Assembly (NCBI GenBank): GCA_052034805.1 | Contig: JBPOID010000005.1 | Location: 50,984-114,983 of the forward strand | Source of the DNA: Candidatus Tayloriibacteriota bacterium | Lineage (GTDB): Bacteria; Patescibacteriota; Minisyncoccia; Phycocordibacterales; PALSA-1337 | Length of the DNA stretch: 64,000 nucleotides | Reading direction: 5' to 3' | In this document: one piece after another, positions 3,449 to 62,876 of the stretch | Layout: each line of letters opens with the position of its first letter | Position numbering within the stretch: the stretch's first letter is position 1 | The notes under the pieces: model-generated | The model's database searches: none | What the model was told of the DNA's origin: nothing | Seen by the model: the letters and a program-made list of their open reading frames with translations, nothing else | Made by a program: the position numbers and the translations under genes

Positions 3449-4291
3449 TTAATTAGTGAAAACTCTAAAGATTCCGGAGTCTCCACTTGAATCTACGGGA
3501 TACATGGTGATATCCCCGTAGATGAAGAATGGCTTTAAAGCCATTTCATTCCATGTTTTGAAATCGTTAGATTTCTCGACATGGATATGTGTGTATTCCC
3601 ATGGGGAATCTACAAAGAGATAGGTACCGTCCGGAATCCCATCAAGATTTTTTATGACCTTGATCTCAAGTGATGTTTTCTTTGCATAGTCCATCACTGC
3701 AAATTCCTCGAATGTATCTATGATAGTACCAACCTCAAAGGAATCAGACCCTTCACCCCAAGTAATAGAGATCGTGGGGTATCTGGTGCTACCATCATAA
3801 GCAATGAAGACATTGAATGTCTCGCTACCGATCTTAAAGCTTCCATAGCTATAAAGATTTTTCATCAACCCTTCAGGGGTCAATGAATAATCATATACGC
3901 TAGTACGATGATCTTCTGTCTTCAGAGCTGGAGAAAATTTTTCCCCAGTCAACACATCGGTAAAGACAGGTGTTGAAACTATCCCATCTAGACCTGTCGG
4001 TATGGGAGATAGTCTGAGGATTCTTCCTCCTGCAAGGGATTTCGTCTTGATAACGAAATAATCGTAATTCCCCTGCTGGGAAGATGCAGAGTTTGACCAA
4101 TCTCCCTCTGTACTAACCCAATGAAGTGGGTAGTTCTGGCTCTGAGCTATCTCCTTATAGTAAAGGATATTGGTTTTGAACGCCTCGCTTACGCGAGGGA
4201 TCCTCACCACCGGCTCAGATGCCTCCGAGAAGATCTGAAACACGAATGATAAGATAACCGACAGAATGACAATGAACTTTGTTGTTTTCAC
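3449..4291 (-). CDS. secreted hypothetical protein (signal peptide), GC-richer than the housekeeping genes
   Basis: Long ORF with an N-terminal signal-like hydrophobic segment and no motif I recognise; its composition differs from the flanking AT-rich genes. Confidence 0.5.
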   Translation of the reverse strand: MKTTKFIVILSVILSFVFQIFSEASEPVVRIPRVSEAFKTNILYYKEIAQSQNYPLHWVSTEGDWSNSASSQQGNYDYFVIKTKSLAGGRILRLSPIPTGLDGIVSTPVFTDVLTGEKFSPALKTEDHRTSVYDYSLTPEGLMKNLYSYGSFKIGSETFNVFIAYDGSTRYPTISITWGEGSDSFEVGTIIDTFEEFAVMDYAKKTSLEIKVIKNLDGIPDGTYLFVDSPWEYTHIHVEKSNDFKTWNEMALKPFFIYGDITMYPVDSSGDSGIFRVFTN

Positions 4292-4540: not shown

Positions 4541-5203
4541 TCAATGATTGAAATACAACCACGACCATGTCGTGACCATCCATGTGAGCTCATTGCCCGT
4601 CTCACTGATGAATAGTCCGATGTTCTTCTTCGTCCAGCCATCTTGTTTGGCTGTGACTGCGATCTCTATAGCTCTCACAATAACTGTGATATGCCCAATG
4701 ACAAGAGACATTCCAGCCAACCCATCGTTTCGCCCTGCTTTGAATATGCAGTAAGCGATATAGAGTTGTGGAGTGCTCTTAACAATAATGGACATTAAGC
4801 CTCTATTGATCGGCTCGACGAAAGTTTCCATCACAGAACCTTTTGATCTTACAATCATAAGGACAGTGAGAGATGCGATAACCAGAAGTGTTACCAATGT
4901 ATCACTTTTCGTCCAGTATCCCTTTAGAGAAATAATGACGAACATAGTGGCCCATAGTAACAACCAGTTGGCATATACAAGAGTGACTTGCATAGCCTTT
5001 CGACTGCCTGAATCCCAATAAGCACTGAGAGCCAGGAAGAAATTAATTGTGACGAAGATCGAACAGAGCATAGACCATGTGATGGTCATGCCAGTCGTCG
5101 TTGTGAATGATCTGTGTATCTGCGGGATGCTGAAGCACCACGCCATAATGATCTGGAACCAGAAAAGCAGGTCCCCGATCATATTTTTGTTTTTATTAGA
5201 CAA
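4541..5203 (-). CDS. PQ-loop-repeat-like polytopic membrane protein
   Basis: About 7 TM segments; two PQ motifs (SIPQIHRSF and STPQLYIAY) in positions consistent with the two PQ-loop repeats; GC-richer composition. Confidence 0.4.
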   Translation of the reverse strand: MSNKNKNMIGDLLFWFQIIMAWCFSIPQIHRSFTTTTGMTITWSMLCSIFVTINFFLALSAYWDSGSRKAMQVTLVYANWLLLWATMFVIISLKGYWTKSDTLVTLLVIASLTVLMIVRSKGSVMETFVEPINRGLMSIIVKSTPQLYIAYCIFKAGRNDGLAGMSLVIGHITVIVRAIEIAVTAKQDGWTKKNIGLFISETGNELTWMVTTWSWLYFNH

Positions 5204-5771: not shown

Positions 5772-5858
5772 ATAAAATAAATTATTTTTTAATGATTGTA
5801 TTATAACAGATAAAATAATTAAATTAATATTTAAAAAAGAAAACCGCAAAGCAAAGCC

Positions 5859-6410
5859 TTACGGTTTTTTGAAAAGCACTATTATGAGTAGAATGGTGTT
5901 AAAGAAAATACCATTAACTGCATTGATGATTCCTCCCAAGCTCCAATCTGATCCGATCAATGTGAGTAAACACGATAAAGCACTAAATCCCCAAACAGGC
6001 CAAGTGTCTTTTATCGGATTTCTCCATAAATCGATGAAATTGGGAATACCAGCTATATTCATCGCAGTTATACTACCCATAAGACCTATCAATGCACCAT
6101 ATCTAAACCAAATGTATGCACTGATGATAGCCCCGATGGCACAGATAGTCTCTTTATAAGACCAAATCCATTTCCCTCGTACGAACAATGCAATAGCTAC
6201 AGAAGTAGAACCCAAAACCCAAGCCCCTGGCAGATAACCTGGTTCATTATTCGCTATGGTAGTAGCTAGAAGTAGAGAATCAAGCACCACCCACATTACC
6301 CAAGTCGCTCCCGTAGAAGCATGAGCCTTTCGAGTCCATACATTGTAGGCGTACCATAAAAATACACCCAATGCCATTGCACCTCCTGAATATGTAAAGA
6401 ACGTTTTCAA
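5859..6410 (-). CDS. polytopic membrane protein (unknown function)
   Basis: 183 aa ORF with 5-6 hydrophobic segments and clean coding statistics. Confidence 0.45.
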   Translation of the reverse strand: MKTFFTYSGGAMALGVFLWYAYNVWTRKAHASTGATWVMWVVLDSLLLATTIANNEPGYLPGAWVLGSTSVAIALFVRGKWIWSYKETICAIGAIISAYIWFRYGALIGLMGSITAMNIAGIPNFIDLWRNPIKDTWPVWGFSALSCLLTLIGSDWSLGGIINAVNGIFFNTILLIIVLFKKP

Positions 6411-6577
6411 AATCCACCTCCTTTCTGTTTTTTCTGTAATTTTTCTGTGTTTAGAGTATTGTTTACAGTATTTTTTTCCAGTATTTTTTCTATTCAGACA
6501 ATATCATGTGAAAGTGGTTATGTCAATGGAGTGCTAGATACAACTTCTAGAAGACCTCGGTATGATTCATATGGATG

Positions 6578-57528: not shown

Positions 57529-57606
57529 TTTAAAGAAAACTAGAAGTTGCACGCTAAAATGAGGGTGGTATGATGTAGATACTATCCCTTTTTTAATACA
57601 CTATTC

Positions 57607-58791: not shown

Positions 58792-58795
58792 TCTT

Positions 58796-59090
58796 TAGAA
58801 AATTGGACTTGGCATACAAGAAAATCGGTTCGCCGATCTTGCGGTCGGAAGCTCTTTTTCTTTACTCCGTACACTCGTAAAGAAAAAGACTTCCTCCCCG
58901 TCGGCTCACACGATTTTCTAGTTTACAATATTACATACTAGAAAATTGAGACTTGGCACGGTGCGCAGAACTTTCTTTTTAGTCGCTTGTCGATAAAAAG
59001 AAAGTTTACTGCGCACGCAAGTAGCCAAGTCCAATTTTCTCGTATACGAACCGATTTTCTTAGATACGGACCAATTTTCTACAGACTATG
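58796..59090 (+). repeat. copy 2 of the ~290 bp nested-palindromic repeat family (variant central hairpin)
   Basis: Shares left and right arms with copies 1 and 3. The centre is cagaactttctttttagtcgcttgtcgataaaaagaaagtttactg, itself a palindrome. Confidence 0.85.
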
Positions 59091-60030: not shown

Positions 60031-60040
60031 TTTGTTAGAA

Positions 60041-60315
60041 AATTGGTTCGCCTATTAGAAAATTGGACTTGGTATACAAGAAAATCGGCTCGCCGATCTT
60101 GCGGTCGGAAGCTCTTTTTCTTTACTCCGTACACTCGTAAAGAAAAAGACTTCCTCCCCGTCGGCTCACACAATTTTCTAGTTTGTAATATTCCATACTA
60201 GAAAATTGAGACTTAGCACGGTGCGGGAGCCTTTCCGTAACGGAAGTGGAGGAAAGGTCTCACGCACGCAAGATGCCAAGTTCAATTTTCTAATAGGCGA
60301 ACCGATTTTCTATTT
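60041..60315 (+). repeat. copy 3 of the ~290 bp nested-palindromic repeat family
   Basis: Near-identical to copy 1, including the central ggagcctttccgtaacggaagtggaggaaaggtctc hairpin. It is in the same orientation as copy 2, on the other side of trxB. Confidence 0.85.
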
Positions 60316-60334
60316 TACAATATAGGAAAATTTA

Positions 60335-60904
60335 TTAAATGCACTTCTTCCACAGTCCTTTCTTTGTCTTTTTTGCTATTGCTTCTGCTTCTTTGAATTC
60401 TTTTTGATATTTATATTTTTCTTTATTGAAAGTATATTCATAAGCAAAGCCATTTTCTATCATATATTGATTATAGAATAATCCATTAGACAATCTCGCA
60501 TAGGCCAATACTCTTCCATATTTATCATAATCTCCGGAAGTATTACTTTTATTTATATCTCTTTCTAGGAAGACATAATTATGCAAAAGAATGCTTTTTG
60601 CTTTATCTGAAGCTTCCCTACCATAACATTGAACTGTCTTTCTGGGATCTAAAGTTTCTGGAGTATCTATACCTAAAAGTCTTATAGTAATATCTTTATT
60701 ATCTATATTAATAACAAATGTATCACCGTCTAATACTTCTTTAATATTATATGATTTATCTTTATCTATAAAATTAGCTTTATTATGTGATTTATTATAA
60801 TTAGATTTTTCAAAGAATAGGATAATGAAAATTATTAGAAAAATAAAAAAAGCCAATAAAATATATCCTATAAATAATTTTATTTTCTCTATATTTATAT
60901 TCAT
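60335..60904 (-). CDS. thermonuclease (staphylococcal nuclease, SNase-like), membrane anchored
   Basis: Trimmed to the internal ATG (MNINIEKIK...). DGDTFVINI...IRLLGIDTPE...GRVLAYA is an SNase signature. Confidence 0.75.
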   Translation of the reverse strand: MNINIEKIKLFIGYILLAFFIFLIIFIILFFEKSNYNKSHNKANFIDKDKSYNIKEVLDGDTFVINIDNKDITIRLLGIDTPETLDPRKTVQCYGREASDKAKSILLHNYVFLERDINKSNTSGDYDKYGRVLAYARLSNGLFYNQYMIENGFAYEYTFNKEKYKYQKEFKEAEAIAKKTKKGLWKKCI

Positions 60905-61210
60905 AAAAAATAGTAAATAAAAATAATAATGAATAAAAAAACCGGCTAGGACATTGTCCAAACCAGTTATGTAATAGAGGGGAACGCATCGCACGAGCAA
61001 AGAAGGTGCAATCGACTAGGATTATCCAGCAACAATCTGGATAGATCTGCCAGAGTAGCAGATCATCACCACTTTCAGTGGGAAAGAGGAAACAAAACCC
61101 ACATAATTAAGACGTACAATGCGCCCCCTCTCCTATAATAATAACAAGAATACAATATAGGGAGCAATGAAAAGATATCCCCATTTATTCCACAAGTTAT
61201 TAGATTTCGC
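60905..61210 (-). promoter_or_regulatory. GC-richer structured 5' leader with a terminator-like hairpin immediately upstream of the nuclease start (candidate riboswitch/attenuator or sRNA)
   Basis: No ORF of 60 aa or more on either strand. Minus-strand hairpin aactggtttggacaatgtcctagccggtt followed by TTTTTTTATT ends about 25 nt before the ATG. Internal hairpins include atccagattgttgctggat. Confidence 0.3.
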
Positions 61211-61660
61211 CTATTGACTATCTACCTTTGAAAGAATACCTATTTTTAGACTTGAAAGCTCATTTGCTGGTCTTCTCTCCCCACCATGTTGATCTCCAAA
61301 GAGTGTTGAACCATCTATTCCACATACCTTTACTATATTATCTACACCACCGGGATGTTTGTTAACGAAAGATGTCAAATCATATACCCCACCATTAACA
61401 GTAGTCCAACAATCGGAAGAAGTTTTGTGTTTCGCTATATCTGCTAAAGTATATTTCTTCTCTGTTGTTGATGTATTATTTGTTGTGGAAGTATCATTCT
61501 TTGTATCAGAAGGATTTGTAGAAACTGAACTATTATCAGTTGAAGTATTTGTATTATCTATTACTTTATTCTCTGTTGATGAAGAATTCTTCATTCCTAT
61601 AACTAAAGCTCCAATAACTATTAATATAATTAATACTATCCAAATTATTTTTTTATTCAT
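61211..61660 (-). CDS. membrane-anchored cytochrome b5-like heme-binding domain protein
   Basis: N-terminal TM, a Ser/Thr/Asn-rich linker, then YTLADIAKHKTSSDCWTTVNGGVYDLTSFVNKHPGG, a cyt b5 HPGG signature. Confidence 0.6.
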   Translation of the reverse strand: MNKKIIWIVLIILIVIGALVIGMKNSSSTENKVIDNTNTSTDNSSVSTNPSDTKNDTSTTNNTSTTEKKYTLADIAKHKTSSDCWTTVNGGVYDLTSFVNKHPGGVDNIVKVCGIDGSTLFGDQHGGERRPANELSSLKIGILSKVDSQ

Positions 61661-61724: not shown

Positions 61725-62876
61725 TTATTTTGAAAGGATTTTCTTTAGACTGAGTATTCTATAAACGCTATTATTTATATTATCCATAGAAATCTGGCCA
61801 TTATTCACTGAATCTATAATCTCATTATATGCTTCATTTATTATCTTTTCATTTGCAACATAGAGTAATATATCATTGCCCGCGAGAACAGCTTGTTTCG
61901 CGGCTTCCTTTATTCCAAATTTTGTAGTTATAGCACCCATATTCATATCATCAGTGATAATAACACCATTATAAAGAAGATCATTTCTCAATACACTGAT
62001 TATCTTTGGCGATAGAGTTGCTGGGTATTTTGCATCTATTTTAGGAAATAAAACATGACTAGTCATAACCATATATGGTTTAGACTCTTTTATAACATTT
62101 CTAAAAACTTCTATGTATTCCAATAAATCATTTTCTTTAATAGAAGATACCGGTAGAGATCTATGAGAATCAACAGAATTATTATCATGACCAGGGAAAT
62201 GTTTAACCGTAGCAGATATGCCATTATCTTGATAACCCTTTACCATAGCTATACCGAGAGATGAAACTTGTTCTTTTGTACCACGAAAAACTCTATTATA
62301 TAGAAAAGAAGATGGATTATTAATATAATCCAAAACCGGAGAAAAGTTTACATTTATACCCAATAAAGATAATTCTTTGGCTCTCTTGGAAGAAACTTCA
62401 TAAGCTTGATTATAGTCCTTTATTTTTGTCTGTGATGTCAGATCGAGATTCGGATTATTTATCCTAGAAACAATACCACCTTCCTGATCTATAGTTATAA
62501 GCAAATTCTGCTGAGAAGAACTAGTGGCTAATCCTTGCAATGAATTTATCAGAGCATGAACATCTTTCCCTTTTATATTTGAATTCATTAAAATAATAGA
62601 ACCAATTTTCTTTTCTTTTATCAATTTCTTCAATACTTCATCACTATCATTTGTATATATACCAGCAAGAAACATTTGACCAACCTTTTCTTCTAGGGAC
62701 ATTTTATCCAAAATAATACGTATATTATCTATAGGTTTTTCTATAATTTTATCTTGAACAATAGATTCTTTAGATATATATTCTGTTTTATTATTTGGAG
62801 AAAACTTTATAAATAAAAAACAAGACAGAAGGATTATCGGTATAGAAATATATAGTATTATCTTAGATAAGGGCAT
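61725..62876 (-). CDS. nagZ: glycoside hydrolase family 3 beta-N-acetylhexosaminidase (NagZ-like), membrane anchored
   Basis: KVGQMFLAGI and a KHFPGHG catalytic region. Confidence 0.8.
   Translation of the reverse strand: MPLSKIILYISIPIILLSCFLFIKFSPNNKTEYISKESIVQDKIIEKPIDNIRIILDKMSLEEKVGQMFLAGIYTNDSDEVLKKLIKEKKIGSIILMNSNIKGKDVHALINSLQGLATSSSQQNLLITIDQEGGIVSRINNPNLDLTSQTKIKDYNQAYEVSSKRAKELSLLGINVNFSPVLDYINNPSSFLYNRVFRGTKEQVSSLGIAMVKGYQDNGISATVKHFPGHDNNSVDSHRSLPVSSIKENDLLEYIEVFRNVIKESKPYMVMTSHVLFPKIDAKYPATLSPKIISVLRNDLLYNGVIITDDMNMGAITTKFGIKEAAKQAVLAGNDILLYVANEKIINEAYNEIIDSVNNGQISMDNINNSVYRILSLKKILSK

Follow-up and report, generated by a model that had tools for sequence, protein, structure and literature searches.

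The DNA analysed here is a stretch of 64,000 nt (the window), with an overall G+C content of 33%, whose nuclease and FtsZ are most closely related to proteins from genomes labelled Candidatus Paceibacterota/Parcubacteria. On the minus strand, a GH3 hydrolase gene (61725-62876) is followed by a cytochrome b5-like gene (cyt-b5), a non-coding stretch of 306 nt and an SNase-family nuclease gene. A thioredoxin-reductase-like gene (trxB) is convergent with this cluster, and ftsA-ftsZ lie beyond it. The two flanking genes had already been named as cytochrome b5-like and nuclease in an earlier reading made from the letters of the DNA (the sequence-only reading), and Pfam matches to Cyt-b5 and SNase confirmed both assignments (Table 1). 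Formally, the nuclease ORF reaches 61000 through a TTG-started frame; this longer version was discarded, since homologues begin at the ATG at 60904, which aligns with their start codons.

Table 1. Coordinates of the features at the cyt-b5-nuclease locus (window numbering).
Feature	Position	Strand	Remarks
Cyt-b5-like protein, membrane-anchored, upstream gene	61211-61660	minus	Pfam PF00173, E = 4e-15
Conserved unstructured spacer, putative RNA promoter	61136-61210	minus	About 91% identity between two species
Structured RNA core, 156 nt	60976-61131	minus	Same architecture in MFE of both species
P1	61131-61113 with 60995-60976	minus	19 bp, one bulged U; closes the molecule
P2 (GUGGG/CCCAC)	61102-61098 with 61082-61078	minus	Pyrimidine-rich loop, 14-15 nt
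P3	61075-61067 with 61008-60999	minus	Closes four-way junction (P3a, P3b, P3c)
P3a	61064-61058 with 61050-61044	minus	Loop variable in length and sequence
P3b	61043-61037 with 61029-61023	minus	7-bp stem; invariant loop AUUGUUG 61036-61030
P3c	61022-61020 with 61013-61011	minus	Four-way junction hairpin
P1-terminator linker, A/C/U-rich, variable	60969-60975	minus	AUUACAU here, ACUCAA in sister species (alignment)
Rho-independent terminator, bulged 12-bp hairpin + U7	60935-60968	minus	AACUGGUUUGGACAAUGUCCUAGCCGGUU + U7; dG about -13.8
AT-rich 30-nt spacer, window-lineage-specific	60905-60934	minus	Local tandem duplication; possible -10 TACTAT
SNase-family nuclease, N-terminal membrane anchor, downstream gene	60335-60904	minus	Pfam PF00565, E = 2e-24

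Two MITE-like elements of about 290 nt each, richer in G+C, flank trxB at 58795-59089 and 60036-60323; they are 96% identical over 171 nt and carry terminal inverted repeats of about 40 nt each. As the sister species described below has gaps of just 74 and 125 nt at these sites, the two elements look like recent insertions. In addition, the cyt-b5 coding sequence carries 14 nucleotide differences from the otherwise near-identical strain variants L018-L021, as compared to only 0-3 in its flanks of about 1 kb, which suggests a recombined or fast-evolving segment.

The sequence-only reading had described the non-coding stretch as a G+C-richer region with several stable hairpins, and both properties were recovered. 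Specifically, the G+C content reaches 42-46% in 100-nt windows across 60950-61149, compared to 33% for the whole window, and the minus-strand sequence 61215-60930 has a minimum free energy (MFE) of -92 kcal/mol, compared to -67 +/- 4.6 for dinucleotide shuffles (z = -5.5), none of 200 shuffles being as stable as the native fold. The structured portion is confined to the 156-nt core and does not extend over all 306 nt. It is closed by P1, and a P1/P2 junction (J1/2) of 10-12 nt contains the motif CUUAAUU, which, together with the AUUGUUG of the P3b loop, is invariant and unpaired. On the sense strand the MFE is -92 versus -70 on the antisense strand in the window, and -106 versus -76 in the sister species; the covariance model (CM) scores are 185 bits for the sense strand and 24 bits for the antisense strand. 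G.U pairs, fold energies and CM scores all favour the minus strand, which is therefore assigned as the RNA strand. A coding reading was rejected because four 1-nt indels separate the species and because, in the ATG frame, the stop is not conserved and there are radical substitutions. In 60800-61300, ARAGORN detected neither a tRNA nor a tmRNA gene, and no tandem repeats were detected within the RNA by TRF.

Orthologous copies, found by protein-guided look-ups with nuclease, FtsZ and cyt-b5 homologues, show that one congeneric species and several strain variants carry the element at the equivalent position, in the order GH3, cyt-b5, RNA, SNase. The copies of this second, sister species are L001 (GCA_964507375.1) and, reached via the cyt-b5 gene, L023 and L022; in the window-species strains L018-L021, also reached in this way, the RNA core is identical or near-identical. 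The two species share 96% amino-acid identity in FtsZ and 69% in the nuclease. Their RNA cores are 85% identical, as compared to 60-70% (about 64%) at the fourfold sites of five flanking genes, and since both the core and the 75-nt spacer upstream of it exceed fourfold-site identity, both are considered to be under constraint. Among strains, the RNA shows 0-1 differences versus 3.4% in the nuclease coding sequence, which is suggestive of constraint on the RNA, though the comparison is confounded by mosaic divergence.

For the sister copy the predicted architecture is the same, and its fold is likewise significant (z = -7.1). When pairing was scored in four distinct sequences, 98.9% of the pair cells were formed, compared to 43-53% in slid-partner controls; the only two exceptions are each confined to one strain variant, L022 having an unpaired cell in P1 and L020 one at the P3b base. 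Between species, about eight pairs show one-sided changes to or from G.U and no substitution breaks a pair. The check on conservation and covariation proposed in the sequence-only reading showed a shared fold and four double compensatory pairs between the two species (three in P1, one in P3b), which are consistent with the fold but, coming from two independent lineages across which P2 and P3 are invariant, are without statistical power.

Searches of Rfam 15 gave no match in the region at the gathering score. At E <= 10 no aptamer emerged, the output being snoRNA and miRNA noise on the other strand or elsewhere, and the sister copy gave the same result; the earlier failure to match known riboswitch cores was thus reproduced even at a permissive threshold. 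A covariance model, R1, was built in this analysis from the element: neither blastn nor R1 with filters off detected a second copy in the 64-kb window. Outside the window, a P3b-based pattern run on GTDB species representatives gave 3 chance matches and a looser pattern run on IMG/VR viral contigs gave 12, all rejected by CM; two independent patterns had no match in JGI metagenome contigs, and blastn against phage and plasmid records returned noise only (E about 0.9). A synteny-guided search of ten or more related lineages recovered the RNA in the window species and in one sister species only, and no R1 match was found in the fetched loci of more distant relatives. In the literature we found no description of a CPR RNA of this kind. 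All together, the element is real, conserved and unclassified, with a narrow distribution of two species.

In lineages whose FtsZ is 81-89% identical to that of the window, the nuclease gene is preceded by another gene, with a spacer of at most about 100 nt. The arrangement cyt-b5-doxX-SNase was found in L006, L024, L038 and a JGI contig of P0243, while mscL precedes SNase in L002-L005 and L011-L012, and a bPH_2 gene does so in L039. Judging from gene order, the RNA is in the doxX slot in one genus only. A degenerate doxX pseudogene was considered and rejected, as tblastn and blastn comparisons with DoxX of L006 and L024 gave noise (best E = 0.16). About 2 kb beyond the nuclease/trxB cluster, L038 carries a bAvd-like gene beside a reverse transcriptase gene (RVT_1) at 5772-6558, a pair that could represent a diversity-generating retroelement.

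An element placed where relatives have a gene might be the relic of a small MITE-like mobile element that replaced doxX, with P1 as its terminal inverted repeats, being now kept for its promoter and terminator or non-functional as RNA. Correia/MITE-type small elements donate promoters and terminators, and the present case resembles them in being a lineage-specific insertion of about 200 nt with long terminal complementarity and transcription signals beside a gene; in addition, two clear MITE-like insertions with 40-nt inverted ends lie by trxB in the same window. However, only one copy was detected in the 64 kb, also when filters were off, and it does not resemble the MITE-like elements nearby. 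Moreover, it occupies an orthologous site in two species with 85% identity versus about 64% neutral, it has an elaborate internal junction, and its compensatory changes, together with the three G.U pairs of P1, speak for selection at the level of RNA pairing. A small mobile element with dispersed copies was rejected on copy number within the 64-kb window (blastn, CM), and a relic origin appears very improbable.

Downstream of the core, a stable G+C hairpin followed by a U-run on the transcribed strand, the hallmark of a Rho-independent terminator, was found at 60968-60935, and it corresponds to the hairpin and U7 quoted in the sequence-only reading. It was missed by a generic terminator scan because it is bulged, and was recovered by a purpose-made hairpin scan. 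Its ensemble pairing probability is 0.97-0.99. At six other places in the window, a stop codon is immediately followed by a hairpin with U6-7 (dG -13.6 to -17.4); as the hairpin before the nuclease gene belongs to the same class, we conclude that this genome uses canonical intrinsic terminators, this one included. The sister species preserves this shape, although the inner stem differs in sequence (GGAC/GUCC versus CUAGA/UCUAG) and the outer stem has a C-G in place of U.G.

The terminator does lie directly before the nuclease start, as claimed earlier, but the U-run ends 30 nt upstream of the ATG and not about 25 nt. In the sister species this gap measures 7 nt, and its lengthening in the window lineage is due to an AT-rich tandem duplication (60905-60941; period 16, 2.3 copies by TRF). 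Because a gap of 7 nt leaves no room for a promoter, transcription of the sister-species nuclease gene must pass the terminator. In the window, the sequence TACTAT at 60915-60910, 5 nt before the nuclease ATG, which is degraded to AACTAT in the strain variant L020, is a possible leaderless-type -10 element for the nuclease gene. Accordingly, the scenario that the sequence-only reading had set against itself, namely a cyt-b5 3' UTR followed by an unrelated nuclease promoter, is in keeping with the position of TACTAT in the window, while in the sister species it is contradicted by the 7-nt gap.

On the upstream side, no supported fold was detected in the 75-nt spacer (consensus -9.6 kcal/mol, no covariation, pairs broken in L022), and a structured 5' domain within it was rejected on these grounds. 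The spacer harbours a conserved block, TCTAATAACYTGTGGAATAAATGGGGATATCTTTT, upstream of a putative promoter composed of a -35 element TTGCTC (61167-61162), an 18-nt spacer, a TG (61146-61145) and a -10 element TATTAT (61143-61138). All four variants have identical TG and -10 sequences, and the -35 element reads TTGCT[C/A]. Promoters of a similar form, TTGnnn-N16-17-TAnnnT, lie in front of tRNA genes in the window. Transcription is predicted to begin about 7 nt past the -10 element, at the first base of P1 (about 61131), which would give an RNA of about 195 nt up to the U-run; it is from these signals that we infer promoter use and the transcript ends. Between the strains L022 (5418-5504) and L023 (686-772), 11 of 87 positions differ just after the cyt-b5 stop, versus 1 of about 200 in the RNA plus terminator, and the cyt-b5 proteins are identical.

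Were the element to have no promoter of its own, the cyt-b5 mRNA would carry it as a long structured 3' UTR, which might be cut out via the P1 stem as a 3'-UTR-derived RNA, and the hairpin would be the cyt-b5 terminator. Indeed, no terminator separates the cyt-b5 stop codon from the RNA in the window, relatives have a tight operon of cyt-b5, doxX and SNase, and a 19-bp stem resembles a processing stalk. Against this, the conserved TTGCTC-N18-TGnTATTAT would set the +1 position at the first base of P1, and a spacer conserved in the face of no supported RNA fold is a better fit to DNA-level signals. A cyt-b5 3' UTR with no promoter of its own is therefore considered improbable; an own promoter and cyt-b5 3'-UTR transcription are, on the other hand, compatible and can hold at once.

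As regards translation and transcription starts in general, a Shine-Dalgarno-like motif precedes just 11 of the 55 long ORFs in the window. By comparison, -10-like hexamers of the form TAnn[AT]T peak sharply at a position ending 6 nt before start codons, in 12 of the 55 genes, over a background of about 2 per position. Considering the few Shine-Dalgarno sites and the -10-like peak near starts, leaderless transcription appears to be common in this genome, and the sequence data suggest widespread leaderless mRNAs in this member of the Paceibacteria.

The sequence-only reading had proposed three options for the locus, i.e. a riboswitch, an attenuator expression platform or a separately terminated sRNA. 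The locus does have a structured, conserved RNA that ends in an intrinsic terminator just before the nuclease gene, and no specific riboswitch signature was found. Mutually exclusive pairings, which had been suggested as a check, did not emerge: searching for partners of the 5' half of the terminator gave no terminator/antiterminator alternative in either species. Specifically, the best competing duplexes have energies of -8.5 (window) and -9.1 kcal/mol (sister species) and lie at non-homologous positions, the terminators in the same comparison being worth -13.9 and -10.7 kcal/mol, respectively. When the P1 5' strand was barred from pairing, the terminator was still part of the MFE structure in both species. 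With no antiterminator and a terminator unaffected by the P1 block, the feature that defines an expression platform is lacking. In addition, the 19-bp closing helix is far more stable than the usual ligand-gated P1; it contributes about -25 kcal/mol, and would consequently form in its ligand-free state.

These data bear on the hypothesis of a cis-regulatory leader, in which the folded core would act as a riboswitch of a new class, or as an attenuator responding to a protein or an RNA, and so tune read-through into the nuclease gene; for a CPR cell that lives by scavenging, the supply of nucleotides or nucleosides is a plausible signal. As in attenuating riboswitch leaders, a promoter, a complex, conserved multi-helix fold closed by P1, an intrinsic terminator and an ORF follow one another on one strand, and the downstream gene here encodes a nucleic-acid scavenging enzyme. 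Some nucleoside-sensing riboswitch classes, such as 2'-dG-II, precede nuclease genes. Furthermore, the element is found solely in front of this nuclease gene, the sister-species nuclease must rely on read-through, and the two invariant unpaired motifs, in the P3b loop and in J1/2, would suit a sensing role. Compared to such leaders, however, there is no Rfam aptamer match even at the permissive threshold, no antiterminator in either species and a P1 of 19 bp, and the distribution is limited to two species. The P1-terminator linker is variable, the orthologous nucleases of neighbouring genera have no leader at all, and in the window lineage a promoter past the terminator may bypass the element. 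A cis-regulatory leader is thus a possible but unlikely explanation. In a narrower form, a new and very rare riboswitch or protein-responsive attenuator acting through a tertiary or pseudoknot contact and tuning a scavenging nuclease in a nucleotide-auxotrophic CPR bacterium seems rather improbable.

The separately terminated sRNA fits the data better than a riboswitch does, in that the conserved, putative extended -10 promoter would put the start at the first base of P1. We tentatively favour, as the best single explanation, a discrete gene for a structured RNA, specific to the genus and equipped with a promoter of its own and a strong terminator, which insulates the nuclease gene or attenuates transcription into it. 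According to this model, RNA polymerase would start at the TTGCTC-N18-TGnTATTAT promoter, at about 61131, and would produce an RNA of about 195 nt with its 5' and 3' parts locked in the 19-bp P1, enclosing the P2 hairpin with its pyrimidine-rich loop and the four-way junction of P3, P3a, P3b and P3c. Most transcripts would end at the hairpin and U7 at 60968-60935, and as the element sits before the nuclease gene, in the slot of doxX or of another gene, the terminator would also insulate or attenuate in a fixed manner. Nuclease mRNA would then arise as a minor product of read-through, obligatorily so in the sister species; in the window, a weak leaderless promoter may contribute as well.

A role in trans might involve protein binding, or base pairing via the AUUGUUG loop, the CUUAAUU junction or the CU-rich P2 loop. 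When possible targets of the exposed loops were searched, the P2 loop was found to pair with every Shine-Dalgarno-bearing gene, a non-specific result, and the search identified no trans target or partner protein. Both read-through and any trans-acting role are what we infer from the architecture of the locus. An RNA gene always positioned directly 5' of the same gene also makes a pattern that a cis-regulator would show.

Two known systems combine a structured RNA with a downstream protein gene in a manner comparable to the RNA gene that we favour. In E. coli, ssrS, which encodes 6S RNA, is a stable RNA gene co-transcribed with the downstream ORF ygfA. The likeness lies in a structured RNA with paired 5' and 3' ends, followed by a same-strand protein gene that is at least partly dependent on read-through; in contrast, the element described here has no 6S-like central bubble or long terminal stem, does not match the Rfam 6S models and is restricted to one genus. 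Type III toxin-antitoxin loci (ToxIN-like) consist of a promoter, a non-coding RNA, a Rho-independent terminator and a promoterless nuclease gene, the terminator setting the RNA:mRNA ratio; their antitoxin RNA is composed of tandem direct repeats, and the toxin is a cytoplasmic endoribonuclease. The promoter-RNA-terminator-nuclease architecture is the same here, but the RNA has no tandem repeats (TRF), the downstream protein is an SNase (PF00565) with an N-terminal membrane anchor, and there are orthologues of the nuclease that have no RNA partner; a type III toxin-antitoxin system was rejected on the first two of these differences.

Few regulatory RNAs have been described from the CPR/Patescibacteria, whose genomes are tiny. 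A conserved, strongly folded RNA belonging to no known family, which replaced a protein gene in an envelope/nuclease cluster, would add to the few lineage-specific structured RNAs of the CPR, and would show an RNA gene and a leaky terminator setting the expression of a scavenging nuclease in a largely leaderless genome. If responsive to a signal, it would link an RNA sensor to nucleic-acid scavenging. The two-species distribution and the uncultured hosts limit this significance.

Other hairpins of the window were recorded along with the terminator of the RNA. Two identical 35-nt terminator hairpins (UUUUACCCUCAAGUCCGCAAGACUUGGGGGUUUAA + U-run) lie on the minus strand at 3445-3404 and 4519-4479, where they follow the neighbouring genes 3449-4291 and 4541-5203, which have strong Shine-Dalgarno sites and no Pfam match. 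Finally, a terminator-like hairpin with U6 (dG -11.1) maps to the plus strand at 57561-57594, within the 78-nt gap between ftsA and ftsZ, and is possibly another intra-cluster attenuator.
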